Assembly: GCA_011040095.1 (NCBI GenBank)
Contig: DRDE01000177.1
Location: forward strand, 1-53,393
Length of the DNA: 53,393 nt
Reading direction: 5' to 3'
Source: Nitrospirota bacterium
GTDB lineage: Bacteria > Nitrospirota > Thermodesulfovibrionia > UBA6902
The position numbers and the translations under genes were made by a program. The stretch's first letter is position 1. Every line of letters begins with the position of its first letter. The notes beneath the pieces were generated by a model that worked only from the letters and a program-made list of their open reading frames with translations, ran no database searches and had not been told where the DNA came from. Positions 6,657 to 36,862 of this stretch are shown here, piece after piece.

Positions 6657-7727
6657 CTATTTCTTTCCAAGATAAACGCCTGCTTTATTCCCGTAACAGT
6701 TATATCTGATGATCCGGATCAATTCAATATTGTCTTTCTTTGTTTCACTGACAATATTCAGCCCGTGAGGGTTATCTCTTACTGGATTGGCATATTTTAT
6801 CTGTTCCTTAAGCATCAGCGCCCCTGCCGCACAGTTAAAGGCGCTGCCGGTCATCATGCTGCCGAACAGGGGAGAATAAGCGGCAGCGGGAATATCTTCA
6901 GAGAGTGAATACGCATAAACGGATTCATCGGCTAACATGCCGTCTGCATCAATAATATTTAAATCCACTTGAGGTGAATTTTCCGTTTCAGCGTCCATGA
7001 GTATATTTTCAACTTCACAAAAAGTATTATCCGTCTTCCTGTTGCTCAACAAAAAGAAGACAGCGCCTTCACCCGGGACGTGAAAGACAGGGTTGAAATC
7101 AAAAGGCTTTATTCTGCCATCAGATGCAGCTCTCAATTTTTCATTATAAATATATCCCAGGACATCACCGTACTGTTCCGCCGTCCCCACCAAGACATAA
7201 TCACACCGCCCCTCATTTAACCATGACCGGGCAAGCTGCAGGGCGCTCTGGAAAGAGAAGAAAAATTGTGTAACGGTCAAGGTCGGCCCCTGAATATTGA
7301 GGGCTGATGATATGTAAGAGGAGGCTGCATTGTGGACCGAATTGGAGAAGGACGTCGGCGAAGGATGTAATTCTCCGTATTGAAGTATTTCGTCCAGAAA
7401 ATCAAATGTCGTTACATGAGGGCCGAATGCCGTTGCAGTTATAATGCCTACTGTTTTTCCGTCAATATTTTCTATCCCGCTGTTTTTAAAGGCCTCGGAA
7501 GCGGCATAAACCGCCATTTTGCTTAATTTGTCGGAACGCCGCATTTTTTTCAGCAATGTCCTGTCGGCAATATTCCTGATATCAGCCAGATATGCAAAGC
7601 TTTTTCCGTCTTTTAAATAAGAAGCGCCAATTTCAGCAGGCTTTTGCCATCCCCGGTTCAGGGCATCACGGAACCTGTCGACTCCCCTGCCCTGCGCACA
7701 GATAATGCCCATCCCGAGGACATTCAT
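6657..7727 (-). CDS. KS-like protein lacking the active-site Cys (chain-length-factor-like partner)
   Basis: 356 aa with a thiolase-fold KS pattern. The GPxxxxxxACSS position reads GPTLTVTQFFFSF (Phe instead of Cys), and the HGTGT and GHxxGAAG histidine motifs are absent. ATGA overlap with the upstream KS (7724-7727). Confidence 0.8.
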   Translation of the reverse strand: MNVLGMGIICAQGRGVDRFRDALNRGWQKPAEIGASYLKDGKSFAYLADIRNIADRTLLKKMRRSDKLSKMAVYAASEAFKNSGIENIDGKTVGIITATAFGPHVTTFDFLDEILQYGELHPSPTSFSNSVHNAASSYISSALNIQGPTLTVTQFFFSFQSALQLARSWLNEGRCDYVLVGTAEQYGDVLGYIYNEKLRAASDGRIKPFDFNPVFHVPGEGAVFFLLSNRKTDNTFCEVENILMDAETENSPQVDLNIIDADGMLADESVYAYSLSEDIPAAAYSPLFGSMMTGSAFNCAAGALMLKEQIKYANPVRDNPHGLNIVSETKKDNIELIRIIRYNCYGNKAGVYLGKK

Positions 7728-8899
7728 CCCTTTCGCTCCAGCACAAGGGCCGCATTATTTCCGCCGAACGCCAGAGATGTGGATAGGGCATATCGTCCGT
7801 CAACAGTTGTCTTCCGGACAACAGGCGCTACCGGGATATTTTCATCCCTGTTTTCAAATCCCGCGCTGGCAGGTATCCACCCTTCCCTTAATGCCGCGGC
7901 GCTGAACACAGCCTCCATTCCTCCGGCTGCGCCTAATGTATGACCGGTATATCCTTTCGTTGATAACATCTTCAGACCTGCCCCGAATATTTTCCCAAGC
8001 AGCCTGCCTTCAACAAGATCGTTATCCGTTGTTGCCGTGCCGTGGGCATTAACAAAGCTTACATCCGCAAGTGTAATACCTGCATCGGAAAGGGCCTTGC
8101 TGATTGACGCTTCCAGTCCCGCACCGTCCGGCCTCGGCGCCGTAAGGTGGTATGAATCACTGGCAGAGCCGTATCCTGAAATAAAAAGCCCGGATGTCAT
8201 CCCTCTCTTTTCAACTGATTCCCTTGTCTCAATAACCAGGATACCCGCTCCTTCACCCAGGTTAAGTCCTTTACGGTCCCGGTCAAAGGGCATGCATAAT
8301 TCACTGCTCAGCACCCCTAAAGATCCAAACCCGCAAAGAGGAACAATGTTCATTTCATCGGCGCCGCCTGCAATGGCTATATCACACAGCCCGTTATTCA
8401 GCCATGATATTGCTACACCGATTGCATCGGTCCCTGAAGAACATGCATTGACAACTGTAAGCGCAGGCCCCCTCACTTTGAATCTGCGCGAAATAAATTC
8501 AGCAACATTGCCCTTTAAATACCTGTTTGCCGACGTCATGGGCGCTGAACGGGTATTGCGGTAAGATTTGTAGAATTCAATATCATTAAGCTGGCTTGCC
8601 ACTGTTGTGCCCAGGCAGACGCCGACCCGGAACCCTGACAGGTCGCTGCCGAGTTCTGCATTCCCGAGCGCTTCATCGACTGCACAGAGGGCAAGGCTCA
8701 GTGTCCTCCGGCCTTCCATGTAGAATTTTTCAGGAATATCTTTGACTTCAAAGACGGGATACGGCAGTGAGGTCTCAAACAGCGTTACCCTTCCTGCATT
8801 CCTCTTTCCCCGGCTGAATGAATCAAGAGTGTTATCGAGACCAACGCCCGCTGCGGAGACTACCCCCAATCCTGTTATCAACACATTATAGTTTCTCAC
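7724..8899 (-). CDS. Beta-ketoacyl-ACP synthase, FabF/FabB-like, catalytically complete
   Basis: 391 aa (GTG start). Motifs: GPALTVVNACSSGTDAI (Cys), VNAHGTATTDND (His), GHTLGAAG (His). Confidence 0.9.
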   Translation of the reverse strand: MRNYNVLITGLGVVSAAGVGLDNTLDSFSRGKRNAGRVTLFETSLPYPVFEVKDIPEKFYMEGRRTLSLALCAVDEALGNAELGSDLSGFRVGVCLGTTVASQLNDIEFYKSYRNTRSAPMTSANRYLKGNVAEFISRRFKVRGPALTVVNACSSGTDAIGVAISWLNNGLCDIAIAGGADEMNIVPLCGFGSLGVLSSELCMPFDRDRKGLNLGEGAGILVIETRESVEKRGMTSGLFISGYGSASDSYHLTAPRPDGAGLEASISKALSDAGITLADVSFVNAHGTATTDNDLVEGRLLGKIFGAGLKMLSTKGYTGHTLGAAGGMEAVFSAAALREGWIPASAGFENRDENIPVAPVVRKTTVDGRYALSTSLAFGGNNAALVLERKG

Positions 8900-9219
8900 A
8901 TTAATCGGATATGACCGGACTCCTGCAATTTTTGATTATCATTTTATTTGCCTGTTTATGAGAACTATCAAGGAAGTGAAAATACTATAAAATAATAAAA
9001 TCCCGAAGTCAAGAAAATATAAAATCCTGCCGGATTCCCATAGGGGAAAAAGGTCATATGTCTCCGGTAAAATATTGTGTGTACTCCTCCTTGCTTTTTG
9101 ATTTGGAATATTAAGCTTTTTTGTGATACTATCTTCTCATCCTGGTAAGTTTTTGCCCATAAAAAACTTGCCATATGAGATTAAAAACTGATGTGCTTTC
9201 TGTCTGACCACTATTTTTC

Positions 9220-10668
9220 ATGAAAAAGAAGAAAAAGATTTTATTTATCCACCCCCTTGGAGTAAACTGGGTGCCGGGCGAAACAGATATGTCCCGTGTT
9301 GCGAATATAATGCCCCCGCTCGGACTTTTAAGCCTTGCCGCCTGGGTGGAGAAACATGGGCATATTTCTTCTGTTCATGACTGCTATGCCTACCCGGTTC
9401 AGGATGAAAAAATCATTGAAAAAATAAAAACAGATACTCCCGACTACATAGGATTCAGCACCACAACATCAAGTTTCCCTGATGCTGTCCGGATTGCAAT
9501 GAAGATAAGAGAAGTTATGCCCAAAATAAAAAATATTTTCGGTGGTGTGCATATCTCGGCCCTCAATGAAACCCTGCTGCAGGATTATCCTGTCATCGAC
9601 TATGGCATTGTGGGTGAGGGGGAACTTACCCTGTTATCGTTAATTGAGAGTGACGGACAGATAGGGAAAAATGTTCCGGGCCTTTTATACCGGGATGGGG
9701 ATGAAATCATTTTTACAGGGTTTCGTAATAAAGAACAGTTGATTGATCTGGACACACTCCCTTTTCCTGCATACGACAAACTGAATGGTTTTCCCGATTT
9801 ATACAAATTACCCATTTTTAATTATCCGAGGGCTCCGCATACAACCGCTGTTTCAAGCAGGGGATGTCCTTACAAGTGTTCATACTGCGACAGGACCGTA
9901 TTTAAACGTTCATACCGTTTTAATTCTGCGGGGTATTTATATGACCACGTTAAACATCTGAACCGGAAATATGGTATAAGGCATATTAATTTTTATGATG
10001 ATCTCTTTACATTTAACCGTAAAAGGGTGGAAGAATTCTGCAGACTTTTAATAAATAAAAAGAGAGGGATTACATTTAATTGTGCTGCTCGCGCTGAACA
10101 TGTTGATAGGGACTTATTGCTATTAATGAAAAAGGCCGGCTGCTGGATGATCAGCCTCGGAATAGAAACCGGTGATTCGGAGCTTCTGGGGGTTCACCGT
10201 TCCAATTCCGATCTTGAAATGATAAGAAGCAAGGTTGAATTAATACGTGAGTCCGGAATAAGGGTAAAGGGTCTGTTTATGATGGGTCTGCCGGGAGAAA
10301 CTGAAGAAAGCATAGACAAGAGCATTAAATATGCTTTGGATATCCCGCTTAATGATATGAACCTGACAAAGTTTACTCCATTTCCGGGAAGTCCTGTTTA
10401 TAAGGAAATCAGACGTTACGGGACATTTAATGAAAAATGGGAGCTGATGAACTGTACAAATTTTGTTTTTGTACCGAATGGACTCACACATGAACGGCTT
10501 GAAGAACGTTACAAGGAATTTTACAGAAGGCATTTTGAACGGTATCACATACTGTTTGACTATATGACAATGATTTGGCGATCTCCCGACAGCTGGGTGC
10601 GTTTTCTTTTAAACCTGCGGGGATTTTTAAGGATCAGAAATACTTTCAGAGGAAACAAATCCGCCTGA
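9220..10668 (+). CDS. Cobalamin-binding-domain (class B) radical SAM enzyme
   Basis: 482 aa. N-terminal B12-type Rossmann region (KKILFIHP...PDYIGFSTTT...IFGGVHISA), then SSRGCPYKCSYC (CX3CX2C). Confidence 0.9.
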   Translation: MKKKKKILFIHPLGVNWVPGETDMSRVANIMPPLGLLSLAAWVEKHGHISSVHDCYAYPVQDEKIIEKIKTDTPDYIGFSTTTSSFPDAVRIAMKIREVMPKIKNIFGGVHISALNETLLQDYPVIDYGIVGEGELTLLSLIESDGQIGKNVPGLLYRDGDEIIFTGFRNKEQLIDLDTLPFPAYDKLNGFPDLYKLPIFNYPRAPHTTAVSSRGCPYKCSYCDRTVFKRSYRFNSAGYLYDHVKHLNRKYGIRHINFYDDLFTFNRKRVEEFCRLLINKKRGITFNCAARAEHVDRDLLLLMKKAGCWMISLGIETGDSELLGVHRSNSDLEMIRSKVELIRESGIRVKGLFMMGLPGETEESIDKSIKYALDIPLNDMNLTKFTPFPGSPVYKEIRRYGTFNEKWELMNCTNFVFVPNGLTHERLEERYKEFYRRHFERYHILFDYMTMIWRSPDSWVRFLLNLRGFLRIRNTFRGNKSA

Positions 10669-10715
10669 TCCATTGATTAGCACAGGGACGGTAATGATAT
10701 AATGTATAAGTCGAG

Positions 10716-12014
10716 ATGAAGATTCTTTTAGTAAATCCCCCGAATGCCGGGATAAGCATTCCGGTTGAAAAATTTGGTTTAAAAGAAACACAAAAAATTT
10801 TCAAAGGGGAACCCTTTGCGTTAGAGGTGCTTGCAGGGAATCTTGAAAACCATGAAACAAAAATTATTGATTTGAAAATTCCCGGTGAATCTTTGGAAAA
10901 AGAAATCTCCACCTTTTCTCCTGATATAGTGGCTTTTACCTCGCTCACCTGTGAAGCCAATACTGTTTTAAACCTCAGCCGGGAGACAAAAGGCATTGAT
11001 AAAAAGATTAAAATTGCAGTTGGTGGTGTTCATGCCAGCAGCGATCCCGCTTTTTTTAACAGAGATTTTATTGATTATTTAATTATAGGACTTGGCAAAC
11101 ACACTTTCAGAAAGCTTGTTGATTCACTGGAAAGGAATGGTTATCCTGAAGAACTTGCGGGGGTAGCCGGGACAAATCCGCAGGCCGGCATTTCATTTAT
11201 AAGGCGGGAATTTGATAGAACGGACCTTGTGGAGGAAAAACCTCCGGCATATGATCTTGTCACCGTATATCGCAAAAACTATGTGATTGACTCTCTGGGG
11301 ATAAGCATGGGATACATAAACACAGCATATGGTTGTCCCAACAACTGTTCTTTTTGTTGTATCGGCAATATAACGGGAAACCGTTATATTGAACATAATA
11401 TAGAATGTGTAATTCGTGATTTAACGCTGCTCGAAGACATTCCGGTTATACGATTGGTGGACGCAAACACCTTTGCAAACCCTGATAGAGCAAAAAAGTT
11501 GTGTAATGCAATAAAAAGCAGCAACTTTAAAAAGCGCTTTATTGCCGATGCCTGTGCGGATTCAATAGTTTCGGATCCCGGGCTTTTTGAGCAATGGCAA
11601 AAAGCCGGCCTTCATGCGGTTATTATCGGATTTGAGGAAATTAACAATGAAAGGTTGTCGGGATGGAGAAAGAAAAGCACTTTGGTCATCGTTCAAAAGG
11701 CAATCGAAATACTTCATGATCTTGAAATCTCAATTGTAGGTGATTTTATTATATCCCCGGACTATTGTGAAAATGATTTCAGAAAGCTGGAAACTTTTGT
11801 TGAAAAAAGCGCAATTGAGCTTCCTGTTTTCTCGGTTTTAACGCCTTTGCCGGGAACTCCGCTTTACAAAACCATGCAAAATGATATTATAATCCACAAT
11901 CTTGATTATTATACTTTGGGAAATGCAGTAACTGAGACAGCCTTGCCCGAAAAGGAATTCTATACAATTTTAACCGGACTTCAAGACAGGTTTCATCGTA
12001 AAGCCAGACTCTGA
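10716..12014 (+). CDS. Cobalamin-binding-domain (class B) radical SAM enzyme
   Basis: 432 aa. MKILLVNPP...PDIVAFTSLT...AVGGVHASS, then YGCPNNCSFC (CX3CX2C). Confidence 0.9.
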   Translation: MKILLVNPPNAGISIPVEKFGLKETQKIFKGEPFALEVLAGNLENHETKIIDLKIPGESLEKEISTFSPDIVAFTSLTCEANTVLNLSRETKGIDKKIKIAVGGVHASSDPAFFNRDFIDYLIIGLGKHTFRKLVDSLERNGYPEELAGVAGTNPQAGISFIRREFDRTDLVEEKPPAYDLVTVYRKNYVIDSLGISMGYINTAYGCPNNCSFCCIGNITGNRYIEHNIECVIRDLTLLEDIPVIRLVDANTFANPDRAKKLCNAIKSSNFKKRFIADACADSIVSDPGLFEQWQKAGLHAVIIGFEEINNERLSGWRKKSTLVIVQKAIEILHDLEISIVGDFIISPDYCENDFRKLETFVEKSAIELPVFSVLTPLPGTPLYKTMQNDIIIHNLDYYTLGNAVTETALPEKEFYTILTGLQDRFHRKARL

Positions 12015-12031
12015 AAAGGAATTAAGACCCT

Positions 12032-13180
12032 ATGGACGTTTATATCACCGGCACATCAGCATTCTTACCGAATGACCCTGTAGAAAACGATCAGGTGGAG
12101 GATATTATAGGAAGCATTACAAGGCTCTCTCCCAAGGTAAAAGAAATAGTCCTGAAAAGTAATGGCATTAAGAAAAGATACTATGCCATCCATCCACAAA
12201 CAAGAAAACCGACACACACTAATGCACGGCTTGCAGCAGAAGCAATCAAGAGATTGATAAGCTCATCCGGCATTTCCGGAAATGATATTGAACTTCTTGC
12301 CTGTGGCACTTCAATACCTGACCAGATATTGCCGGGGCATGCTTCAATCATACACGGTGAGCTCGGGACAGCCCCCTGTGAAATAATTTCCTGCTCGGGT
12401 GTCTGTTGCTCGGGAATGGCTGCAATGAAATATGCCTACGCAAATGTTTCTGCCGGTTTTTCTAAAGTTGCTGTTGCCTCAGCATCAGAGGCCGCTTCTT
12501 CATATATCAGGAAGGAGAACTATCGAATCCCCCCGCAGGAAAATAATCCTGCTTTATCCGACAATTCAATGCCCGGATTTAACGGTGAATTCCTGAGATG
12601 GATGTTATCTGATGGCGCAGGGGCGGTTCTTTTAGAAAATAAATGCCCTGAAGATCGCATATCCCTTAAAATAGAATGGATAGAGCAGCGCTCCTTTGCC
12701 AACGAGCTTGATACATGCATGTATGCCGGAGCAGTAAAAAATGACGACGGCAGCCTCAGGGGATGGCGTGATTTTGATTCACTTCAGGATGCACTTGGCA
12801 ATAATGTTTTTGCCATTCAACAGGACGTTAAACTTCTAAACAAAGAAATTGTAAAGACTGCCGTGGAACGGGCCCTCATCCCCGTAGCAAAAAGCCGCGA
12901 GCTGTCACCTGAACAGATCGACTGGTTTCTTCCGCACTATTCATCAGATTATTTCAGAAGCGATTTTTTCGAGAAACTTAAATTTAATGGTTTTGAAATC
13001 CCATACAGCAAATGGTTTACCAACCTGACTGAGAAGGGTAACACCGGAGCAGCTTCGATTTTCATAATTCTGGATGAGCTGTTTAAATCCGGAAAAATCA
13101 AAAGAGGGGAAAAGCTTCTTTGTTTTATCCCTGAAAGCGGCAGATTTACAATATGTTATATGCTTCTGACAGTGGTTTGA
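12032..13180 (+). CDS. Long-form KAS III (FabH-like) condensing enzyme
   Basis: 382 aa. Candidate catalytic residues: Cys in SCSGVCCSGMAA, His in FLPHYSS, Asn in EKGNTGAASI. The N-terminus (FLPNDPVEND...LKSNGIKKRYYA) differs from canonical FabH. Confidence 0.8.
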   Translation: MDVYITGTSAFLPNDPVENDQVEDIIGSITRLSPKVKEIVLKSNGIKKRYYAIHPQTRKPTHTNARLAAEAIKRLISSSGISGNDIELLACGTSIPDQILPGHASIIHGELGTAPCEIISCSGVCCSGMAAMKYAYANVSAGFSKVAVASASEAASSYIRKENYRIPPQENNPALSDNSMPGFNGEFLRWMLSDGAGAVLLENKCPEDRISLKIEWIEQRSFANELDTCMYAGAVKNDDGSLRGWRDFDSLQDALGNNVFAIQQDVKLLNKEIVKTAVERALIPVAKSRELSPEQIDWFLPHYSSDYFRSDFFEKLKFNGFEIPYSKWFTNLTEKGNTGAASIFIILDELFKSGKIKRGEKLLCFIPESGRFTICYMLLTVV

Positions 13181-13191
13181 AAATCATTGAA

Positions 13192-13479
13192 TCAGGAAGC
13201 AAAAATCTTTTTATTTATAAAATCAGCAAGTGTATTAATGGATTTAAGAACCTGGCGGGAAGTGTTGATGTCCCTTATGCGAACCTTGTATTTCTTTTCC
13301 AGGGCAACCACTATTTCCACGGCATCAAGTGAATCTATACCTAATGGCGAAGAGGGATCAATCAGGGGTTCATCATCCTTAATATGATCCGCAGTAATAC
13401 CTACTTCCTGCAGATTGCAGGTCTCGACAACCAGCTCTTTCAATTCACTTTTCAAGGATTTTATTGCCTGCTCACTCAT
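13192..13479 (-). CDS. Acyl carrier protein
   Basis: LGIDSLDAVEIVVALE phosphopantetheine-attachment motif. I prefer the second ATG (AGGA 7 nt upstream); the ORF track extends to 13497. Confidence 0.85.
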   Translation of the reverse strand: MSEQAIKSLKSELKELVVETCNLQEVGITADHIKDDEPLIDPSSPLGIDSLDAVEIVVALEKKYKVRIRDINTSRQVLKSINTLADFINKKIFAS

Positions 13480-13570
13480 AGTTGATTCCTGCTGCATTGT
13501 AAAGGTTTTGCGGCAGGCTCACCTGCCTTATTTATGCAAGATAATATCGCCTGTAATAAATATTCAAAAT

Positions 13571-14857: not shown

Positions 14858-15616
14858 CTAATCTCTCAATTCCTTTCCGGTCAAATTAAGAAAAAAATCT
14901 TCAAGCCTGTTAAATTTACTTCCATCCCCTAACAGGTCCCCAGGGGTTCCTTCTGTTAATATCCTTCCGTTGTCCATTATCGCAATACGCGAACACAGGT
15001 TCTCCGCTTCCTCAAGATAGTGCGTAGTATAGATTATTGTAGTATCGCGATTGCCTGTATCCATTAGATATTCCAATATAACATTGCGGGATTGTACGTC
15101 AATGCCGACCGTAGGCTCGTCAAGAATCAGTACCCTGGGTTTATGAAGAACTGCCGCAATCAGGTTGGTTCTTCTTTTCATTCCACCTGAAAAGGTCGAT
15201 ATCTTTCTATCGGCGTTCTTCTCAAGTCCAAGCAGCTCCAGACATTCATCGATACGCTTTTCCAGATATTTCCCTCTGAACCCGTACATATTACCGAAAA
15301 ACCTCAGATTCTCTCTCGCTGTTAATGAAGAATAAAGGGCCAGGTCCTGGGGGACAACGCCAATGACTTTCTTTATTTCAGCTAAATGCTTTTCAATATT
15401 AACCCCAAAGAACTCAACACTTCCCTTTGATTGTTTCAGCAGTCCGCAAAGAACAGATATAGTCGTAGTTTTCCCCGCGCCATTCGGACCCAGGAGTCCG
15501 TACCTTTCACCACTTTCAATTGCAAATGAAATATTATTAATTGCAGGTTCTTTACTTCCCTCGTATTTTTTGGTTAGTTCTGAAATCTTATAAGCTTGTT
15601 TATTGAAATCGAACAT
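14858..15616 (-). CDS. ABC transporter ATP-binding protein
   Basis: Walker A GPNGAGKTTT, signature FSGGMKRR, Walker B LILDEPTVGID. Confidence 0.92.
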   Translation of the reverse strand: MFDFNKQAYKISELTKKYEGSKEPAINNISFAIESGERYGLLGPNGAGKTTTISVLCGLLKQSKGSVEFFGVNIEKHLAEIKKVIGVVPQDLALYSSLTARENLRFFGNMYGFRGKYLEKRIDECLELLGLEKNADRKISTFSGGMKRRTNLIAAVLHKPRVLILDEPTVGIDVQSRNVILEYLMDTGNRDTTIIYTTHYLEEAENLCSRIAIMDNGRILTEGTPGDLLGDGSKFNRLEDFFLNLTGKELRD

Positions 15617-16618: not shown

Positions 16619-16625
16619 AATATCT

Positions 16626-30117: not shown

Positions 30118-31419
30118 TTAATTGTTTCTCCTGTCTATAAAGCGGTTTATTTTACGGGAGGATGCAGGCAGTATCCGTTTTTTGACCTCCTCGTCAGTGC
30201 AGATTAAAACATCGGGGCTTACGCGCAGCCTTGCCTGAAGCCTCTCCCTGATCCTGTCCGGCGGACAGGCGCTGCCGCCCTTGCTCAGCGACACATAAAC
30301 ATTCAATATATCAGAGAGATCAAAATCGCTGTGTACGGTAATATAATAATCACTGACCTCCGGAATCTCATCCAGGACGGAATATACGGCCTGGGGATAC
30401 AGAGTCGTTCCCCGGTATTTGATCATCTGTTTCTTCCTCCCGATTATAGGTCCGAGACGGGTTGAATGTCTTCCGCATTCACAGGGTTCATCAATCAGGA
30501 AACCGACATCACCTGTTTTAAACCTCAGCAGGGGCATCCCTTCCACCGACAGGGGCGTAACTACTATTTCCCCTGTTTCTCCCGGAGGCAGCGCCTCTCC
30601 CCTGTCATTGATTATTTCAACAATCGCCAGTTCGGGGTGCAGGTGCCCGCCTTTTTTTGCAGTGCATTCACAAAATGTCGTTATTGTCTCGGAAGAGGCA
30701 TATGTTGAATATATATCCGCCGGCCACATTTCTTCCAGGTACTGTCCCATTTTCAGAAGCGAGAGCGCATCGTCCCTGACCGGCTCACCGATGCAGACGA
30801 GCCTGGTTACAGGGGTTTCTTTCGGCTCCATACCCCCGGATTGCAGGAACCGGCCCAACTTATACAGAAATGACGGAACACCGACAATCACGGTAGGCTT
30901 CATCCTCCGGATAATCTCCATGTGGCTTGCAAAACTGCTCAGGCCGTTTCTGATAACAGCGGCCCCCCGCTGCTGCGCCCCTAAAAAGTAAGCCAGCCCG
31001 GCAATAAAGCATCTGTCCATTGTGCACGTGAGCAGGACGATGTCCTCCGCGGTAATTCCGCATCCCGCAAATGATATCTCCTCGTTGTATGCGAGGCGTT
31101 TCAGATCGTTTTCCGTGTACATGATCCTCGTAGGTTTGCCCGTGGTTCCGGATGATAAAACTATGTCCGTAATTTTGGACATGGGGACTGCAAGCAGTTC
31201 ATCATTGTACCTTTCAAGATCGGATTTATCGGTAAACGGCAGATCGCCCAGGTTATCAAGAGATATATTTTCCGGATCATGGCCCCTCAGTGTTCTGCTG
31301 TAATAAGGAGAATTTTTGGCAATATAACCAAGATGGCTTCTGAACATCGTTTCCTGTACCCGTTTTATTTCGTCAGGCCCTTCAAATTCAATCCCCCTGT
31401 ATTTGTAAAAATCCGTCAT
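30118..31419 (-). CDS. PaaK/coenzyme F390 synthetase-type adenylate-forming ligase
   Basis: 433 aa. Motifs: SSGTTGKPT, YASSE, FKTGD, GRKKQMIKYRG. ATGA overlap with the upstream acyltransferase gene. Confidence 0.85.
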   Translation of the reverse strand: MTDFYKYRGIEFEGPDEIKRVQETMFRSHLGYIAKNSPYYSRTLRGHDPENISLDNLGDLPFTDKSDLERYNDELLAVPMSKITDIVLSSGTTGKPTRIMYTENDLKRLAYNEEISFAGCGITAEDIVLLTCTMDRCFIAGLAYFLGAQQRGAAVIRNGLSSFASHMEIIRRMKPTVIVGVPSFLYKLGRFLQSGGMEPKETPVTRLVCIGEPVRDDALSLLKMGQYLEEMWPADIYSTYASSETITTFCECTAKKGGHLHPELAIVEIINDRGEALPPGETGEIVVTPLSVEGMPLLRFKTGDVGFLIDEPCECGRHSTRLGPIIGRKKQMIKYRGTTLYPQAVYSVLDEIPEVSDYYITVHSDFDLSDILNVYVSLSKGGSACPPDRIRERLQARLRVSPDVLICTDEEVKKRILPASSRKINRFIDRRNN

Positions 31420-32165
31420 GCCCTGCTCTCCATAAGGGACAGTTCATTGCCGATAATCTCCCGCACCCTGTTTTTCAATGAAAATATGGTCATTTCCCCA
31501 TAGTCCGTCCATGTAACGGCAGGCAGCCTGCGTATTCTGATTGTCCCGGGTCTTAAAAGAAGCGAGCCTCTGGGTGGAATGTTTTCATTCCCGGAGATGC
31601 AGAGCGGCACTATGGTCGCCTTTGATTTTAATGCAAGACGAAAGGCCGCACCATGGAAATGACCCGGTTTTCCGTGCGGGCGCCGCGTTCCCTCCGGGAA
31701 AAATATTATCGAGACCCTTTCCCTCAGTAATCCCATGGCCTTCTCAAAAAAATCTTCAGGCCGCATCTTCCTTATATTCAGATAGCCTGCCTTCCGGGCA
31801 AAGAAACCGAGAACCGGAATCCGGAAAGGCCATATGTTCACGACCTGCACAGCTTCATGAGGCAGCACGGACATCAGGAAGGCGTCTGATGCAGACCTGT
31901 GGTTGCAGACGAATATATACGGCTCCGGGATATTATCATCTGAATGATTTTCATAGATAAGCCTTATGAATGGAAAGGGAATTAACGTAGTGCCCTTCCC
32001 GTACCAACTGATGGCGCGACGGCACCTCCTGAGTCGACAGCGGCTTGATTTAAATAACGAACAGGAACCGAGGATAAGTGTAACGGCCGGAATGAATATC
32101 AGGGAATAAATTATAAAGAGAAAATAAAAATATAAGTTCAGAGAATAAATTTTAAAATTTTTCAT
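31416..32165 (-). CDS. PlsC-type (lysophospholipid) acyltransferase
   Basis: N-terminal TM helix, HX4D motif NHRSASD, and FPEGTR. Confidence 0.85.
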   Translation of the reverse strand: MKNFKIYSLNLYFYFLFIIYSLIFIPAVTLILGSCSLFKSSRCRLRRCRRAISWYGKGTTLIPFPFIRLIYENHSDDNIPEPYIFVCNHRSASDAFLMSVLPHEAVQVVNIWPFRIPVLGFFARKAGYLNIRKMRPEDFFEKAMGLLRERVSIIFFPEGTRRPHGKPGHFHGAAFRLALKSKATIVPLCISGNENIPPRGSLLLRPGTIRIRRLPAVTWTDYGEMTIFSLKNRVREIIGNELSLMESRA

Positions 32166-32183: not shown

Positions 32184-32438
32184 TCATTTTCTTTTCTTAT
32201 TCAGTTTAATAATAAGACTGTAGATGTCCTGAATAGTACGGATGTTTCTGACTTCTTCTTCATTCCGTATGTTAATTCCGAAACTTTTTTGCAATGCGGC
32301 AACCAAATCAACTATATCAAGGCTGTCCAGCCCCAGGTCGGTAAATATGTGCGCCCCGGGTTTCAACTTTTCTTTTTCTATCTCAAAGGATTCTTCAAAT
32401 ACCTTGTTTGTAATATCAACAATTTCCTGCTCAGTCAT
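32184..32438 (-). CDS. Acyl carrier protein
   Basis: LGLDSLDIVDLVAALQ motif. I prefer the start MTEQEIV at 32436-32438 (GGAGG 7 nt upstream); the ORF track extends to 32483. Confidence 0.9.
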   Translation of the reverse strand: MTEQEIVDITNKVFEESFEIEKEKLKPGAHIFTDLGLDSLDIVDLVAALQKSFGINIRNEEEVRNIRTIQDIYSLIIKLNKKRK

Positions 32439-32512
32439 TTTTCCCTCCCCAGGGCATTGAAATATTATTGATCTGTCAGACACTTATATAGAATAACTGC
32501 GAGTACGGCTTA

Positions 32513-33766
32513 TTATAATACAAAATCCTGAGAAGAATTATTATATTTTCTGCAAACCAGCGCTGCATTAACACCGCCGAAGGCAAAGCCGTTTTTTAAT
32601 ATCGCATTTAATTCCTTTCTTAAAGGTTTCGTAACATGGTCAATACCCCGGCAGTCAGGGCCGGCTTCATCCAGATTTAACGTCGGGTAAATAATCCCCT
32701 TTTCCATCATTATTAAAGAAGCGATAAGTTCAATTGCCCCGGATGCACCCAGTGTATGACCTATGTAGCCCTTTAAACTGCTTACCGGAACAGAGCAGCC
32801 AAAGACCCCCCTGATGGCTCCGGCTTCTTCCTTGTCCCCTTGAAGCGTCCCTGTAGCATGAGCATTTATATAGTCTATTTCGCCGGGGGAGACTTTAGCG
32901 TCTTTCAATGCTTCGCTTATACATTGAATGATTGATTTTTCGTCCGACTGGCTTATACGAGAACCGCTTCCGCAAGTGCTGTAGCCGATAATCTCAGCAT
33001 AAATTTTAGCATTTCTGCGGAGAGCATGTTTATATTCCTCCAGGACCAGGATACCGCTCCCCTCTCCACATACGAGTCCGTCCCTTTCTTTATCAAAAGG
33101 TCTCGGGGTTTTGTGGGGAGACCTGTTGTATTTCACCGATGTCGCAAATACAACATCAAAAGAACCGGTTACCACCGGGTGAAGCTCCTCAGTCCCCCCG
33201 CACAACAGGACATCCTGCTTCCCAAGGCTGATTAATTCATAGCCTGTGCCGATAGCCTGGAGAGAAGAAGCGCATGCGGATGACGTTGCTAGTACATATC
33301 CCGTTAAGCCAAAATATTGCGCCACATTAGCTGTTGCGGTATGAGACATGCATTGAAAAAACATGCCTGATGGAAGCCGGCTCATGTCTTTGTCCGTTAT
33401 CAATATGTTAAATGCATTATTAATACTATTAGCGCTCCCCGTGGTAGAGCCTATGATGCAGCCCATCCGGCCTGATGGTATATAGGGCAGATTTATTCCC
33501 GAATCGTTAAGCGCCTGTTCAGCAGCCTGGACAGCAAAAATACTCATTCTTCCCATAGTACGCCTTTTTTGGCGCGGGATATTTTTCTCATCCTTAAGCT
33601 CCGCAGGGGCAGCTACATGACTGTTCATCCCGCAGTAACAGGACCATTCATCCATAAAGCGGACAGCGCTTTTCCCTGACTCTATGCCGTCTATAAGTGA
33701 ATGGACGCTGCCCCCAAGGGGAGTAACAGCTCCGACTCCTGTTATTACCACTCTTTTCATCAGCAT
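32513..33766 (-). CDS. Beta-ketoacyl-ACP synthase, FabF/FabB-like, catalytically complete
   Basis: 417 aa. Motifs: ATSSACASSLQAI (Cys), INAHATGTLQGD (His), GHTLGASG (His). The start overlaps the stop of the upstream flavoenzyme gene. Confidence 0.9.
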   Translation of the reverse strand: MLMKRVVITGVGAVTPLGGSVHSLIDGIESGKSAVRFMDEWSCYCGMNSHVAAPAELKDEKNIPRQKRRTMGRMSIFAVQAAEQALNDSGINLPYIPSGRMGCIIGSTTGSANSINNAFNILITDKDMSRLPSGMFFQCMSHTATANVAQYFGLTGYVLATSSACASSLQAIGTGYELISLGKQDVLLCGGTEELHPVVTGSFDVVFATSVKYNRSPHKTPRPFDKERDGLVCGEGSGILVLEEYKHALRRNAKIYAEIIGYSTCGSGSRISQSDEKSIIQCISEALKDAKVSPGEIDYINAHATGTLQGDKEEAGAIRGVFGCSVPVSSLKGYIGHTLGASGAIELIASLIMMEKGIIYPTLNLDEAGPDCRGIDHVTKPLRKELNAILKNGFAFGGVNAALVCRKYNNSSQDFVL

Positions 33767-35259
33767 AAATTCTTTAACAAAAACTTATTGTACGTATCCT
33801 CATCCAGAATAGACCCGGCGACAATAAAAGAGGATAACATTGCTCCAAGCAGACCGGGCAAAAGTGAACTCTGTCCGGCAGCATATAAATTTCGCAATGG
33901 AAGCTGTCCTATAACATTAAACTGGTTCAGCTTCTGTTTTATTCCGTAAGCCGAGCCGTCATAATTATTCAGATAATCTCTGAAAGTAAGCACGGACGCC
34001 GAATCAAGAACCCTCAGGCTGTTTTTATATTCCGGGAAGAGCCTGAATATGCGTTTCAATACGGCGTCAACCCTTGTTTTCTTGTAATCCTGATATTCCT
34101 GCGGTCTCATTCCCGTTTGCGAATCCTTCCATGCCTTAACATGTTCCGGGAAAGACGGTTCCAGGGCAACAATTGTTTTACGGTTTTCCCCGCCGACCTG
34201 CTCCACAGACTTGATAAGCAATAGGGCCGGTGTGCCGGTGTATGCCGGATCCAAAAGCTGATTTAAGTCGCAACCCGGCAAAATGGAAAATATGGTATCA
34301 TCAAAATCCGGTTCCTCAAACCCGGACTCCAGGACCGCAAAAACCGAAAAGAATCCTATTGACGACTCAAACAGGTTAACCCGGTTGATAAATGCCCGGC
34401 TCAAATGCTTTTCCGGCAGAATACTTAATATCTCCCTGGGATGTATTGTAAAAATACAGTTATCAGATGAAATCTCTTCTCCTGAACTCAGTATAAAGCT
34501 GCCGACCTTTTTATCATGAATACCGGCCAGGTCCACTATAAAATCATTACAGCGGATATTGATGTCAAAATCCCTGAATTTTGTCTCAAAGGCCTTAACA
34601 AATGCGCCGCCGCCGCCCTTGACATGGGCAATCGACTCAAAAAAACCGAGACATATCCTGCTGTGGTCCGCAAATGAAATTTCTTCCGGTTTAACACCGT
34701 AGCACGTTGCAAACCCGGATAATACGGCTTTTAACAAAGGATTCCGTGTCAGCCTGCCCAGCATTTCATCCAGTGAGATAAAATCCTCTTCCAGGGACTG
34801 ATGCCGGGTTGTAAGTGTGCGCAGGTTCATTGATGGAGTCTGAGCACACACATGCTCGACTTTATCAAAATAGCCATCGATTGCGGATGCTTCACCTGTA
34901 AAATATTCTTTTAATTTCTTTTTTACATTCCCGATTCCATAAGGAATTTTGTATTGCCTGTTTTCTGTCTCGAATATACAACAGATGGCATGGTCCCCGG
35001 ATAAGAATGCCGGCTGGATTAAGTCACGGATTCCCAGGGCAGTCAGGAGCTCGTATAATATTCCGCCTTTTTGAAGTCCCCCCGTAAAATGAAAACCCGT
35101 ATCAAAAGGAATGCCTTTTTTGTAAAACCGTGCCACAGCCCCGCCGATACGAGGGTTTTTTTCCAGCAGCAGCACCTTGCGGCCGTTCATACCGAGGATA
35201 AGGGCCATTGTCATCCCGCTTATACCGCTGCCCACCACTATATCGTCGTATTTTTCCAT
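33760..35259 (-). CDS. CrtI/phytoene-desaturase-family FAD-dependent oxidoreductase
   Basis: 499 aa. Dinucleotide fold DIVVGSGISGMTMALILGMNGRKVLLLEKNPRIGG and a C-terminal ...LYAAGQSSLLPGLLGAM motif. Confidence 0.85.
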   Translation of the reverse strand: MEKYDDIVVGSGISGMTMALILGMNGRKVLLLEKNPRIGGAVARFYKKGIPFDTGFHFTGGLQKGGILYELLTALGIRDLIQPAFLSGDHAICCIFETENRQYKIPYGIGNVKKKLKEYFTGEASAIDGYFDKVEHVCAQTPSMNLRTLTTRHQSLEEDFISLDEMLGRLTRNPLLKAVLSGFATCYGVKPEEISFADHSRICLGFFESIAHVKGGGGAFVKAFETKFRDFDINIRCNDFIVDLAGIHDKKVGSFILSSGEEISSDNCIFTIHPREILSILPEKHLSRAFINRVNLFESSIGFFSVFAVLESGFEEPDFDDTIFSILPGCDLNQLLDPAYTGTPALLLIKSVEQVGGENRKTIVALEPSFPEHVKAWKDSQTGMRPQEYQDYKKTRVDAVLKRIFRLFPEYKNSLRVLDSASVLTFRDYLNNYDGSAYGIKQKLNQFNVIGQLPLRNLYAAGQSSLLPGLLGAMLSSFIVAGSILDEDTYNKFLLKNLC

Positions 35260-35354
35260 TTTTTATCTGTTAAATTCTGTTAAATAGAGTCTGTAGCGGG
35301 CAGACTTACCCGGCATGTTTATGCATTATTAAGGTTAATACAGGAATAATAAAA

Positions 35355-36077
35355 CTACATTGCCATCCCGCCGTTAATTCCGATGACCTGCCCATGTATG
35401 TACATGTCCTCTTCAGTAGATAAAAAGTTGACGACAGCGGCCACATCTTCAACCCTGCCTAACCTGTTAACGGGAATCAAAGGTAAAATTTGATCTCTGG
35501 GAATATCTTCCGTCATTTCTGTCTCAATGAAGCCCGGTGCAACGACATTTACAAGTATATTTTTTTTACCGACCTCACGTGCTAAGGATTTAGCCGCTCC
35601 AATCAGCCCTGCTTTAGAAGCAGCGTAGTTGACCTGTCCGGCCTGGCCTATCTCGCCTGAGACTGATGAAACAACGACAATCCGGCCTTTTCTAGCCCTG
35701 AGCATAGAAAACAAAACAGTACGGGTAACGTTATAAAATCCGTCCAGATTTGTAGAAAGAACCGAACTCCATTCCTTTCTGGTCATCCATACAAGCAGAT
35801 TATCCCTGGCAATTCCAGAGTTGTAGACCAGCACATGCGGTGCAGATTTCTCTACTATCGGAGCCAAAGCCGCTTCTGTTTCATCATAGCTTGAGACATC
35901 AAAGGCTATTAAATCACACGACCTTCCCAGTGTTTCTATCTCTGTTTTTACATTTTCAGCAGCTTTATGGCTGCTCTTGTAGGTCAGGCAGATATCAAAC
36001 CCCGAACGGGCAAGGCGTAAAGATACGGCACGTCCGATTCCCCGGCTGCCGCCGACTATAAGGGCAGTCTTCCTCAT
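35355..36077 (-). CDS. fabG: 3-oxoacyl-ACP reductase, SDR family
   Basis: 240 aa. Motifs: VGGSRGIGRAV (TGxxxGxG-type), NSGI, YAASKAG (YxxxK). Confidence 0.9.
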   Translation of the reverse strand: MRKTALIVGGSRGIGRAVSLRLARSGFDICLTYKSSHKAAENVKTEIETLGRSCDLIAFDVSSYDETEAALAPIVEKSAPHVLVYNSGIARDNLLVWMTRKEWSSVLSTNLDGFYNVTRTVLFSMLRARKGRIVVVSSVSGEIGQAGQVNYAASKAGLIGAAKSLAREVGKKNILVNVVAPGFIETEMTEDIPRDQILPLIPVNRLGRVEDVAAVVNFLSTEEDMYIHGQVIGINGGMAM

Positions 36078-36082
36078 TTAAG

Positions 36083-36766
36083 TCACCCCCCCGGTGAGAA
36101 TTTAACAAACTTCTCCCAATACTCAAACAGATCTTTCGTAGCATACAGATCCCCAACACAGTATCTGGCGATTGTAAGGTATTGCCGCTGTTTAAAAAGT
36201 TCGGGCACTTCGTGTCCTGTGACGCCTTCCTCTTTCGGACTCTTTATTCCAAAGGCTTTGCACCACATGTGGAGGCTGAATTTTCTCCGCACGGAACCAT
36301 AGAATGTCAGCGTATCAATCAGGTCGCAATGCGACAGGTTGTAACGGTTGGGCATAAGCTCTTTGGTCGGCTGTATTTTGTTTATTGCCGACCGCAATAT
36401 GAGAAAGGGAGCGTCAAATCCCCTGCCGTTAAACGTTATCACCTGGTCATAATATTTTACAGCCTCCCAGAACCTCTTAAGTATCCCTGCTTCAGTGTCG
36501 GCAACATATGCAATCCCTTCTTCATCAACAGGGTCCTGGGGCGCTCCCGGAGACTGGTAATATACTGCGCCCCTGTTCGTGTCGGGGTTGAGCATTCCGA
36601 TTGCGACAATCTCACCCGTGAGAGGGGAGAAGCTAAGGCCTTCTTTGGCCGCACTGATATCTTCCTCCGTCTCTGTAAACTTGAGGATATATTCTTTGGA
36701 TGCTTCATCAAAAGAGTCGAAATCTCTTCCGATTGTCTCGATGTCAATAATGATCTTTTTGGACAT
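36083..36766 (-). CDS. PolB-exonuclease-like 3'-5' exonuclease (RNase H fold)
   Basis: KIIIDIETIG..., ...FNGRGFDAPFL..., ...YCVGDLYAT are ExoI/II/III-like motifs. The stop lies only 5 nt before the fabG-like start. The start is ATG 36766 or GTG 36781. Confidence 0.75.
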   Translation of the reverse strand: MSKKIIIDIETIGRDFDSFDEASKEYILKFTETEEDISAAKEGLSFSPLTGEIVAIGMLNPDTNRGAVYYQSPGAPQDPVDEEGIAYVADTEAGILKRFWEAVKYYDQVITFNGRGFDAPFLILRSAINKIQPTKELMPNRYNLSHCDLIDTLTFYGSVRRKFSLHMWCKAFGIKSPKEEGVTGHEVPELFKQRQYLTIARYCVGDLYATKDLFEYWEKFVKFSPGG

Positions 36767-36862
36767 AGAAGGTTTTAACACGTTTTTGATAAAAGATGCA
36801 AGAAATTAATATTCCCGATGAATTCGTAAAAAGTCGTTATAATCCGGAGTGAAGGATAAAAG

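Follow-up and report, generated by a model that had tools for sequence, protein, structure and literature searches.

Aryl-polyene (APE) clusters, such as those of Escherichia coli CFT073 (c1186-c1204) and Xenorhabdus doucetiae, combine a type II ketosynthase/ketosynthase-like (KS/KS-like) pair with a ketoreductase (KR), a heterodimeric dehydratase (DH), lipid anchoring and LolA/MMPL export, and use no enoyl reductase (ER). In the flexirubins (Chitinophaga pinensis, Flavobacterium johnsoniae) and the arcuflavins (arc/dar genes of Azoarcus sp. BH72), two moieties are joined as an ester, and Azoarcus carries its dar genes and its polyene cluster at different loci. Among the proposed ladderane clusters of the anammox bacterium Kuenenia, kuste3335-3352 is syntenic in Desulfotalea psychrophila (Rattray et al. 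2009) and runs, by locus tag, GT 3335, PD 3336, MT 3338, FabZ 3339, ACP 3340, FabG 3341, radical SAM (rSAM) 3342/3343 and ligase 3344. Cluster I (kuste3603-3608), reported to be anammox-exclusive, and kuste2802-2805 are the current ladderane candidates. Ladderanes have been reported from anammox bacteria only, and Desulfotalea had none; no phytoene desaturase activity was seen for kuste3336 and kuste3607, and E. coli expressing the Kuenenia genes made no new fatty acids.

The window analysed here, 53,393 nt of a contig from an uncultured member of the Nitrospirota found in sulfide deposits of the deep sea, carries 29 tightly packed lipid/polyketide genes at 6657-36077, as shown by ORF listing and Pfam/NCBIfam scans. 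HMM annotation bore out the 29 consecutive genes and the domains listed in the original prediction, although the end it had placed at 36781 was moved to 36077, because 36083-36781 encodes an unrelated PolB-type 3'-5' exonuclease (Pfam) that is missing from the related loci of other lineages. Twenty-four minus-strand genes run co-directionally from FabG (35355-36077) to an ACP (13192-13497), with a widest intergenic gap of 95 nt; three plus-strand genes (two B12-rSAM and one KAS III-like) occupy 9220-13180, and a KS/KS-like pair lies on the minus strand at 6657-8899. All five predicted 4-nt stop/start overlaps are real and read ATGA (31416-31419, 20909-20912, 7724-7727) or TTGA (24866-24869, 17138-17141) on the minus strand. 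One very long transcript had been proposed; spacing and coupling agree with this, but the signal of a promoter/terminator consensus scan did not exceed the shuffled background, so it is from spacing and coupling only that we infer a single transcript. Cys-His-His residues are present in KS_a, KS_b and KS_c, the Cys being missing from both KS-like partners, and CxxxCxxC was found in all five rSAM proteins, the DSL motif in all three ACPs and a lipobox in a 220-aa ORF. The genes with APE-like functions are as follows.

35355-36077, minus: FabG/ApeQ-type ketoreductase, first cluster gene (Pfam adh_short, 171 bits; 40% identity to E. coli ApeQ)
32513-33766, minus: KS_c, catalytic ketosynthase, ApeR-like (41% identity to ApeR)
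32184-32483, minus: ACP_1 (PP-binding)
31416-32165, minus: PlsC/LPLAT-type acyltransferase, ApeD-like (Pfam Acyltransferase; weak ApeD match)
30118-31419, minus: FlxY/PaaK-type adenylating ligase, predicted to activate the starter (FlxY_rubin, 457 bits, below the NCBIfam cutoff of 520; runner-up PaaK, 188 bits)
27908-28684, minus: LolA-like carrier, ApeL-like (Pfam LolA)
25519-27918, minus: MMPL/RND-type exporter, ApeM-like (Pfam MMPL; ApeM match)
24866-25528, minus: lipoprotein at the ApeN/DUF3261 position (lipobox FIAGC; position conserved; not detectably similar to ApeN of E. coli)
24477-24869, minus: ApeI-like hotdog dehydratase partner (precomputed PF22818; weak FabA and ApeI matches)
23996-24502, minus: 4HBT thioesterase, ApeK-like (Pfam 4HBT_2; 31% identity to ApeK)
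22851-23972, minus: KS_b, catalytic ketosynthase of the second KS/KS-like pair (best solved homologue 9s5h_B)
22180-22842, minus: KSL_b, short Cys-less chain-length-factor-like partner (Pfam ketoacyl-synt, N-terminal half alone)
18368-19555, minus: GT2-DUF2062 glycosyltransferase, equivalent to the ApeJ N-terminal part (Pfam; 33% identity to ApeJ)
17488-18375, minus: LpxL-type acyltransferase, equivalent to the ApeJ C-terminal part (Pfam Lip_A_acyltrans; matches ApeJ residues 258-550)
17138-17419, minus: ACP_2, ApeE-like (PP-binding; 38% identity to ApeE)
7724-8899, minus: KS_a, catalytic ketosynthase, ApeO/DarJ-like (36% identity to ApeO)
6657-7727, minus: KSL_a, Cys-less KS-like partner, ApeC/DarK-like (Pfam ketoacyl-synt)

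In agreement with the predicted APE/flexirubin-like chassis, a BLASTP comparison with the CFT073 ape cluster matched 11 Ape proteins (ApeR, ApeQ, ApeP, ApeO, ApeM, ApeL, ApeK, ApeJ, ApeI, ApeE/F and ApeD, 20-42% identity) to 12 window genes, since ApeJ, a GT2-acyltransferase fusion, spans two of them; ApeC, ApeN, ApeA and ApeG gave no sequence-level match in the window. The window shares the APE logic outlined above; it lacks the ApeB methyltransferase and has a FlxY/PaaK-type ligase in place of the ApeH type. As also predicted, Pfam and NCBIfam scans detected no ER, FabD, PPTase, ammonia-lyase or class I methyltransferase among the 29 genes. The additions over APE are a CrtI-like flavoprotein, an rSAM-SPASM enzyme fused to ApeP, the second KS/KS-like pair, four B12-rSAM enzymes and the following block.

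16626-17141, minus: DarG-family protein, DarD of Azoarcus, 171-aa ORF (NCBIfam DarG_fam, 162 bits, cutoff 70)
15617-16648, minus: DarH, BtrH-related acyltransferase, DarE of Azoarcus (NCBIfam DarH_acyl, 483 bits, cutoff 300; Pfam BtrH_N and DUF4872)
14858-15616, minus: ABC ATPase, DarF-like (Pfam ABC_tran; accompanies DarB in 25 of 80 loci)
13571-14854, minus: ABC-2 permease, DarI-like (Pfam ABC2_membrane_3; neighbourhood survey of the 80 DarB loci)
13192-13497, minus: ACP_3, DarC-like (PP-binding)
12032-13180, plus: DarB/StlD-family ketosynthase, predicted to form a cyclohexanedione/resorcinol ring (NCBIfam NF005293, 538 bits, cutoff 450)

The five rSAM enzymes, the CrtI-like flavoprotein, the BtrH-like transferase and the ABC-2 exporter had all been taken as foreign to the chassis. 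This held for the rSAM and CrtI-like proteins; by homology, however, the 171-aa ORF, the BtrH-like gene and the ABC-2 exporter, together with one ACP and the KAS III, make up the dialkylresorcinol (Dar) module already known from flexirubin/arcuflavin clusters, and the same set of genes constitutes the published dar cluster of Azoarcus. The likeness to these systems covers DarB, DarG/DarD, DarH/DarE, DarF/DarI, DarC and DarJ/DarK, as well as the FlxY-like ligase, LolA, exporter, GT and acyltransferases. In contrast, the window has neither FlxA tyrosine ammonia-lyase nor a class I methyltransferase, a B12-rSAM stands where the aromatase DarA would be, and the host belongs to a presumably anaerobic Nitrospirota lineage rather than to the Bacteroidota or Betaproteobacteria. 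Term searches of the flexirubin and arcuflavin papers returned no mention of rSAM or phytoene-desaturase-like genes. In the relatives L013 and L088, ACP_2 is followed directly by KS_a with nothing between, and GC is lower in the Dar block (41.2% versus 46.0%), suggesting that the block is an insertion into an APE-like operon. Directly 5' of DarB, DarA was found in 42 of 62 informative metagenomic DarB loci and a B12rS_2 homologue (47-52%) in 15, both together in none; DarA was present neither in the window nor at those 15 loci. ApeB-type methyltransferase homologues were confined to DarA-type loci (none in rSAM-type loci). The standing of B12rS_2 homologues at the DarA position is a new finding.

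We consider, with a probability of about 0.55, that the product is a flexirubin/arcuflavin-type outer-membrane lipid, in which a polyene-type acyl chain would be combined with a dialkylresorcinol or its cyclohexanedione precursor. Two separate products seem unlikely: an APE-like core making its own membrane-anchored polyene lipid, and nested Dar genes making free dialkylresorcinols/cyclohexanediones, compounds with signalling or antioxidant roles in other bacteria, for export via the ABC-2 pump. The separate Azoarcus loci and the distinct GC of the Dar block would suit such a division, as would the absence of Dar beside the core in most phyla and the many loci, L087 among them, where a Dar module has no APE-like core. 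Nevertheless, the Dar genes are flanked by ACP_2 and KS_a within the operon and are translationally coupled to ACP_2 by the TTGA overlap at 17138-17141; DarH is a BtrH-type ACP-dependent acyltransferase, whose most natural role would be to join an ACP-bound acyl chain and a resorcinol; and the flexirubin and arcuflavin moieties are esterified together.

The tailoring enzymes of the locus are as follows.

33760-35259, minus: CrtI/amine-oxidase-family flavoprotein (Pfam Amino_oxidase and NAD_binding_8)
28632-30116, minus: rSAM-SPASM enzyme fused to an ApeP-type hotdog dehydratase (Pfam Radical_SAM, SPASM, ApeP-like)
20909-22180, minus: B12rS_4, B12-domain rSAM enzyme (Pfam)
19542-20912, minus: B12rS_3, TIGR04072 "lipid biosynthesis B12-binding/radical SAM protein" (613 bits, cutoff 360)
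10716-12014, plus: B12rS_2, HpnR-like B12-rSAM enzyme at the DarA place (best NCBIfam match HpnR, 154 bits, below cutoff)
9220-10668, plus: B12rS_1, BchE/HpnJ-like B12-rSAM enzyme (best NCBIfam match BchE, 201 bits, below cutoff)

The CrtI-like flavoprotein scored under every carotenoid cutoff in NCBIfam and showed 28% identity to kuste3336/3607 over its N-terminal ~230 aa, with synteny kept in 11 loci. The C-terminus of the SPASM fusion matched the ApeP structure 6qsr_B and E. coli ApeP, and its N-terminal 340 aa have 47% identity to kuste3343; the protein has more than 2000 homologues. B12rS_4 is the most conserved and slowest-evolving protein of the cluster (59-77% identity across phyla), and its AF2 model (pLDDT 75) gave AprD4, MgmA, TsrM and CysS as top Foldseek matches. 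B12rS_3 is 36% identical to kuste3342, with BzaD and TsrM as next-best families and TsrM (6wte) as best PDB match; BzaD and TsrM methylate aromatic sp2 carbons. The true start of ORF 19542-21065 is most likely the ATG giving 19542-20912, because an end-to-end TIGR04072 alignment then results. Homologues of B12rS_1 belong to APE-like clusters, some of which have DarB and some not. The presence of rSAM enzymes where conventional tailoring enzymes are missing suggests an oxygen-free route.

The match to kuste3335-3352 named in the original prediction stands for these homologies and for content (GT, desaturase-like flavoprotein, ACPs, FabG, ligase, FabF copies plus a non-canonical FabF, lipoprotein), but the gene order given there is contradicted by the locus tags. 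Kuenenia differs in having two SAM methylases and a FabZ; its SPASM enzyme is unfused, and no Dar module is reported from it. Cluster I and kuste2802-2805 share with the window an ACP, a dehydratase, a catalytic KS with a non-catalytic partner, a desaturase-like flavoprotein and a B12-rSAM, whereas their KS partner is full length (KSL_b being a 220-aa half) and the window cluster has all the APE genes for export and anchoring. B12rS_4 is the best window match of kuste3608 (30%, E 8e-48) and kuste2803 (27%, E 1e-35); the low identity and a 17-residue indel in the alignment indicate homologues, not orthologues.

These matches bear on a reading that we find quite improbable, in which KS_b/KSL_b, B12rS_4/B12rS_3, the CrtI-like and the SPASM enzymes would be the general form of the kuste2803-2805 and kuste3605-3608 modules and would form C-C bonds by radical chemistry (cyclisation or iterative branching) on an ACP-bound chain, giving a new type of lipid, carbocyclic or heavily branched, by ladderane-related chemistry. 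The clear homologues of kuste3342 and kuste3343, the pairing of rSAM with KS and non-canonical KS in both anammox clusters, the conservation of B12rS_4, the SPASM enzyme fused to a chain-processing dehydratase and the unsolved state of ladderane biosynthesis in the literature are in its favour; the distance from kuste3608/kuste2803, the lack of ladderanes in Desulfotalea despite its syntenic cluster, the different type of the anammox-exclusive cluster and the standard APE/Dar nature of the remaining genes are not. Genes shared with proposed ladderane clusters are, on this comparison, not evidence for ladderanes, and the ladderane association appears weak, because the family spans many non-anammox phyla and current work favours kuste3603-3608.

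An anaerobic route to polyunsaturated fatty acids/hydrocarbons or ordinary membrane acyl chains, with the CrtI-like protein as desaturase or ER, is highly improbable, even though FAS-like KS/KR/DH genes and a desaturase-family flavoprotein are present. Polyunsaturated hydrocarbons of the Desulfotalea kind are explained elsewhere by Ole/Pfa genes. D. psychrophila has such hydrocarbons, and Rattray et al. suggested a polyunsaturated fatty acid/hydrocarbon role for its cluster, but the link is correlative only. The inactivity of kuste3336/kuste3607 as phytoene desaturases and the lack of new fatty acids in E. coli also speak against it, and the LolA/MMPL/lipoprotein, GT2, LpxL and Dar genes indicate an outer-membrane specialised lipid rather than bulk fatty acids.

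For the polyene-resorcinol lipid preferred here, we infer all seven pathway steps from homology, the homologies alone being demonstrated. The FlxY-type ligase would activate the starter, a carboxylic acid that is probably aromatic, and load it onto an ACP (step 1). KS_c and one or other KS/KS-like pair would extend it with malonyl units, with keto reduction by FabG and dehydration by the ApeI/ApeP-type hotdog pair, and the double bonds would stay in the chain because there is no ER (step 2). The SPASM enzyme, being fused to the dehydratase, probably works on ACP-bound intermediates at the dehydration step (step 3). The tandem B12-rSAMs beside the second KS/KS-like pair would modify the carbon skeleton, B12rS_3 probably methylating an sp2 or aryl carbon and B12rS_4 appearing central (step 4). 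DarB would join two fatty-acid-derived units, with B12rS_2 directly upstream replacing DarA (step 5), and DarH would move the ACP-bound acyl chain onto the resorcinol (step 6). The PlsC- and LpxL-type acyltransferases and GT2 would add the lipid anchor, and the LolA/MMPL/lipoprotein set and the ABC-2 pump would export the product (step 7).

Several observations count against this scheme. We know of no reports of flexirubin-type pigments from the carrier phyla, neither the window nor most related loci contain a gene (TAL, chorismate lyase) that would supply an aromatic acid, and the ligase is below the FlxY cutoff. The CrtI-like and SPASM enzymes have no step in known APE/flexirubin chemistry, and the slow evolution of B12rS_4 is easier to reconcile with a core step than with peripheral tailoring. 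The two ordinary SAM methylases beside the rSAM homologues in Kuenenia show that replacement of methyltransferases by rSAM is not universal. In its favour are the APE chassis matches with ApeP-/ApeI-like domains, the DarB, DarG-family and DarH scores above NCBIfam cutoffs with coupling to the operon, the mutual exclusion of DarA and B12rS_2 with ApeB-type homologues in DarA-type loci only, and the kinship of B12rS_3 with BzaD and TsrM. An aromatic starter is supported by the FlxY-like ligase, whose homologue in L090, in a cluster with the same B12-rSAM trio, adjoins a tyrosine-ammonia-lyase-like gene. The hosts of all named relatives, which we take to be typically anaerobic lineages, likewise count for it.

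No product assignment for the family was found in the literature searched, as had been stated. The core (FabG, CrtI-like, KS, ACP, acyltransferase, ligase, SPASM rSAM-dehydratase, export trio, second KS/KS-like pair, two B12-rSAMs and GT2) has a conserved gene order that recurs in Nitrospirota, Omnitrophota, Desulfobacterota-type MAGs and Lentisphaerota (the cultured Victivallis vadensis among them), indicating that the cluster is not anammox-specific. Across phyla, the five rSAM and CrtI-like genes, where present, are conserved together with the KS/ACP genes, as expected; the BtrH-like gene is not, and travels with DarB. Judged by these sequence comparisons, the cluster belongs to a widespread family of pigment-like outer-membrane lipid pathways related to the aryl-polyene and flexirubin clusters. 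A variant of the core occurs in Phycisphaerales.

ORF calling together with Pfam and NCBIfam scans confirmed the 29 lipid/polyketide genes within 6657-36077. The original prediction had extended the cluster to 36781; the exonuclease gene at 36083-36781 was found in same-species contigs, was missing from related loci of other lineages, and was therefore placed outside the cluster, although it may be co-transcribed with FabG. Beyond the cluster on the right are this exonuclease, PilZ, ppdK, a deaminase, and gyrA. On the left, an HTH gene, an IS1595 transposase, and toxin-antitoxin genes adjoin at 6657, and the low GC content of this flank (36-41% over 562-6569) was noted; the boundary here may be mobile or prone to recombination. 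The flanking features were as follows.

Within 562-6569: PIN and ParE toxin genes
5254-6180, plus strand: IS1595-family transposase
6234-6569, minus strand: HTH regulator, directly beside the cluster end
36083-36781, minus strand: PolB-type 3'-5' exonuclease (RNase_H_2/DNA_pol_B_exo2), on the FabG strand and 5 nt upstream of that gene
45696-46406, plus strand: class I methyltransferase, beyond gyrA
46670-47728, plus strand: sixth radical SAM/SPASM protein of the window, beyond gyrA

The last two lie with an O-antigen-ligase-like gene in a plus-strand group (44150-47728) about 8-10 kb past the cluster, and three HSP20 (small heat-shock protein) genes in tandem, then an ATG22/MFS transporter gene, occupy 48175-49537 on the same strand. 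The window is a contig of 53,393 bp from a MAG that NCBI labels Nitrospirae/Nitrospirota. Genes identical to those of the window were present in marine metagenomes of project PRJDB5792, whose samples are, according to the published description, deep-sea massive sulfide deposits. The closest named relatives were Nitrospirota and Thermodesulfovibrionia MAGs.

All five predicted 4-nt stop/start overlaps read ATGA or TTGA on the minus strand, and the largest gap in the 24-gene minus-strand run did not exceed 95 nt. The sole match in an Rfam scan of the window was one tRNA (40520-40607, minus strand), and no cobalamin riboswitch was found despite the four B12-domain enzymes; a scan for promoters and terminators gave signal no higher than the shuffled background. 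The predicted enzyme inventory was likewise borne out by the motifs, with Cys-His-His in the three ketosynthases (KS), no active-site Cys in the two KS-like partners (KSL_a and KSL_b), CxxxCxxC in all five radical SAM (rSAM) enzymes, and DSL in all three ACPs. The SPASM protein has eight cysteines besides CxxxCxxC, and a 220-aa ORF carries a lipobox. As had been proposed, no enoyl reductase family was matched in Pfam scans of the cluster genes. The best solved homologue of the ketosynthase KS_b (22851-23972, minus strand) was chain B of PDB 9s5h/9s5i, a structure in which two different KS-like chains are present. The alignment to chain B extended over the full length, as compared with only the C-terminal two thirds for E. 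coli FabF. This structure possibly represents the FabF2/FabFmut heterodimer of anammox bacteria.

A BLASTP comparison of the E. coli CFT073 ape (aryl-polyene, APE) cluster proteins with the window genes paired ApeR, Q, P, O, M, L, K, J, I, E/F, and D with window counterparts. ApeO was 36% identical to the ketosynthase KS_a, ApeR 41% identical to KS_c, and ApeQ 40% identical to the window FabG. The counterpart of ApeP is a domain at the C-terminus of the SPASM rSAM protein, an rSAM-dehydratase fusion (SPASM-DH); the solved ApeP chain 6qsr_B matches this domain as well. ApeI has a counterpart in an ApeI-like PF22818 protein. The AlphaFold model of this fusion had a mean pLDDT of 59, and was left out of the fold search for that reason. 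The APE anchoring and export genes were represented, by Pfam and BLAST, by LPLAT, GT2/LpxL-type acyltransferase, thioesterase, LolA-like, and MMPL genes, the last two of which would serve in export. The window lipoprotein corresponds to ApeN (DUF3261 lipoprotein) in position only, showing no similarity to the E. coli protein; ApeC gave no BLAST match in the window, and the aryl-acid ligase ApeH and the ring methyltransferase ApeB had no counterpart there. Instead of ApeH, the window has a FlxY/PaaK-type ligase, which scored 457 bits against the FlxY (4-coumarate ligase) model, below its cutoff of 520. No ammonia-lyase of the flexirubin FlxA type was found in the window; in the window and all fetched loci, such a gene was found only in L090, a locus on a 3.9-Mb metagenomic contig, where a tyrosine-ammonia-lyase-like gene adjoins the ligase.

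The BtrH-like transferase and the ABC-2 exporter had been regarded as alien to this chassis, an assertion that was contradicted by the family scores and by the gene list of a known dialkylresorcinol (Dar) cluster. In the NCBIfam scans, the BtrH-like gene was assigned to DarH (483 bits, cutoff 300), which would act in an esterification, the 171-aa ORF to the DarG family (DarG_fam, 162 bits, cutoff 70), and the KAS III-like gene to the StlD/DarB family (538 bits, cutoff 450), the last scoring 459 bits against the narrower DarB model with its cutoff of 550. The dar cluster of Azoarcus BH72 comprises a KS, its partner, an ACP, an ABC permease, an ABC ATPase, a BtrH-like protein, a hypothetical protein, DarB, and DarA, and the window gene list agrees with it except for the absence of DarA. 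Because the same set occurs in Azoarcus, the window Dar genes were considered native to a flexirubin-style system rather than foreign. Co-occurrence of the accessory dar genes with DarB was seen in a set of 80 loci. The Dar block of 8 kb, with a GC content of 41.2% versus 46.0% for the core, sits between the ApeE-like ACP_2 and the KS_a/KSL_a pair, and its first gene overlaps the ACP_2 stop; in the related loci L013 and L088, KS_a/KSL_a directly follow ACP_2.

A DarB alignment was used to scan metagenomes, which gave these 80 loci; in 62 of them, the immediate 5' neighbour of DarB on the same strand could be evaluated. It belonged to the DarA family in 42 loci and was a homologue of B12rS_2, a B12-domain rSAM enzyme, in 15 (47-52% identical). 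Pfam and NCBIfam did not recognize DarA, and the family identity was taken from the source names of exact-sequence look-ups ("DarA aromatase / dialkylresorcinol condensing enzyme"). The two families were mutually exclusive: no DarA homologue was found in the fetched sequence of the 15 B12rS_2-type loci, or in the window by tblastn with 42 DarA sequences, and in the window the DarA position beside DarB is taken by B12rS_2. ApeB-type methyltransferases occurred in DarA-type loci only. The closest characterized relatives of a further B12-domain enzyme, B12rS_3, were BzaD and TsrM, both of which methylate an aromatic sp2 carbon. Another candidate for the role of DarA, the BchE-like B12rS_1, was rejected, as locus L087 has B12rS_1 together with DarA and DarB, and B12rS_1 homologues occur in DarB-less clusters.

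Taken together, the best-supported reading is that the cluster encodes an oxygen-independent form of the pathway to a polyene-dialkylresorcinol lipid of the outer membrane, an APE/flexirubin-type pathway probably adapted to anoxic life. The homologies, the synteny, the SPASM-dehydratase fusion, the mutual exclusivity of DarA and B12rS_2, and the conservation ranking are observations, and the starter, the polyene character of the chain, and a reaction for each rSAM enzyme are inferred. This reading yields enzyme assignments that can be tested, namely a B12-rSAM enzyme in place of the DarA aromatase, and a TsrM/BzaD-like B12-rSAM enzyme where the ring methyltransferase is missing.

The core was mapped by a genome scan with the SPASM-DH protein followed by ORF/BLAST mapping. 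The conserved order was FabG, CrtI-like, KS, ACP, PlsC, ligase, SPASM-DH, LolA, MMPL, lipoprotein, ApeI-like dehydratase, thioesterase, KS, KS-like, B12rS_4, B12rS_3, and GT2. It was found in Nitrospirota, Omnitrophota, Deltaproteobacteria- and Pseudomonadota-labelled MAGs, a PVC-group MAG, Victivallis vadensis DSM 14823, and a second Lentisphaerae MAG. In Desulfobulbus-type loci the cluster is reduced, and the SPASM rSAM protein is not fused. L088 (Phycisphaerales) and L090 are without the SPASM domain, carry an ApeP-ApeI fusion, and have B12rS_4, B12rS_3, and B12rS_1 in tandem.

L088, 4395-5330: ApeP-ApeI fusion, alternative to the window SPASM-ApeP fusion
L090, 4204-5067: ApeP-ApeI fusion, likewise
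L090, 5551-7389: KS and partner fused, 612 aa

All the rSAM families are large: more than 2000 SPASM-DH homologues were found, and the B12rS_3 family comprised 687 clusters at 50% identity with E<=1e-30. B12rS_4 was the most conserved protein of the cluster, with a minimum identity of 59%; in Omnitrophota and Lentisphaerota it was 66-68% identical, versus 25-53% for its neighbours. In L019, the Victivallis vadensis locus, which has the entire core, the value was 68%. Given this strong conservation, a more unusual chemistry is conceivable. A Foldseek search with B12rS_4 gave only generic B12-rSAM neighbours (AprD4, MgmA, TsrM, and CysS; TM 0.5-0.64), and did not separate methylases from non-methylases.

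The original prediction had also stated a match in gene order to the cluster of Rattray et al. Six Kuenenia stuttgartiensis (kuste) sequences, partial or complete, given as supplementary data by Javidpour et al. 2016, were compared with the window.

Best window matches of the Kuenenia proteins
kuste3343: SPASM rSAM, 47% over 331 aa, E 3e-110
kuste3342: B12rS_3, 36%
kuste3608: B12rS_4, 30%
kuste2803: B12rS_4, 27%
kuste3336 and kuste3607: CrtI-like, 28%, N-terminal part only

Homologues of kuste3342 and kuste3343 are present in the window, and the gene order did not hold, since the order of the locus tags in Table 2 of Javidpour et al. is different. B12rS_3 passed TIGR04072 with 613 bits (cutoff 360). 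The annotated desaturase-like flavoprotein, PaaK-like ligase, GT, and FabF copies (one non-canonical) of kuste3335-3352 agree with the window content, kuste3336 being the only one of these compared by sequence. The cluster is real and was well described, and it is a variant of a family recognized since 2009, not a separate kind.

An alternative is that KS_b/KSL_b, B12rS_4, B12rS_3, the CrtI-like protein, and SPASM-DH form a widespread counterpart of kuste2803-2805/kuste3605-3608, performing radical C-C bond chemistry on the ACP-bound growing chain to give a new lipid skeleton. B12rS_4 can be aligned with kuste3608 and kuste2803, with a 17-residue indel. According to recent work, kuste3603-3608 (Cluster I) is an anammox-exclusive ladderane candidate, and ladderane biosynthesis is unsolved; the window cluster falls outside Cluster I, as B12rS_4 is just 30% identical to kuste3608 with the indel and its host is a Nitrospirota MAG. 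Rattray et al. noted a syntenic cluster in Desulfotalea, where ladderanes are absent. We therefore consider this alternative improbable, and there is no evidence for ladderanes from the window cluster. A literature search on an assigned product, TIGR04072, and the origin of the Desulfotalea hydrocarbons found nothing decisive. If the alternative were true, carriers in culture outside the anammox bacteria, for example Victivallis vadensis, would offer a tractable entry to ladderane-forming chemistry. B12rS_4 combines the highest conservation in the cluster with the closest relationship in the window to kuste3608 and kuste2803, so that knowing what it does in a cultivable carrier could inform the ladderane problem.

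Genome-mining software has flagged members of this family in many non-anammox phyla as 'ladderane' clusters, to which the respective studies assigned no function. The APE/flexirubin-type reading calls for caution when metagenomic clusters of this type are taken to mark ladderanes, and the value of the finding lies in its testable enzyme assignments and in the cultivable carriers it points out.

A recurrent four-gene cassette encodes an ACP, a protein without Pfam match (about 450 aa), an FAD oxidoreductase (about 416 aa), and an AMP-binding ligase. It was observed with B12rS_1 homologues in the following loci.

L089, 665-4906: ACP/FAD oxidoreductase/ligase cassette
L093, 5664-9997: the same cassette
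L094, 5697-9999: the same cassette

The cassette was directly 5' of the B12rS_1 homologue in two Nitrospirota MAGs, and in a 4.7-Mb genome it was located about 5 kb upstream on the opposite strand, flanked by a Trp-halogenase-like gene.
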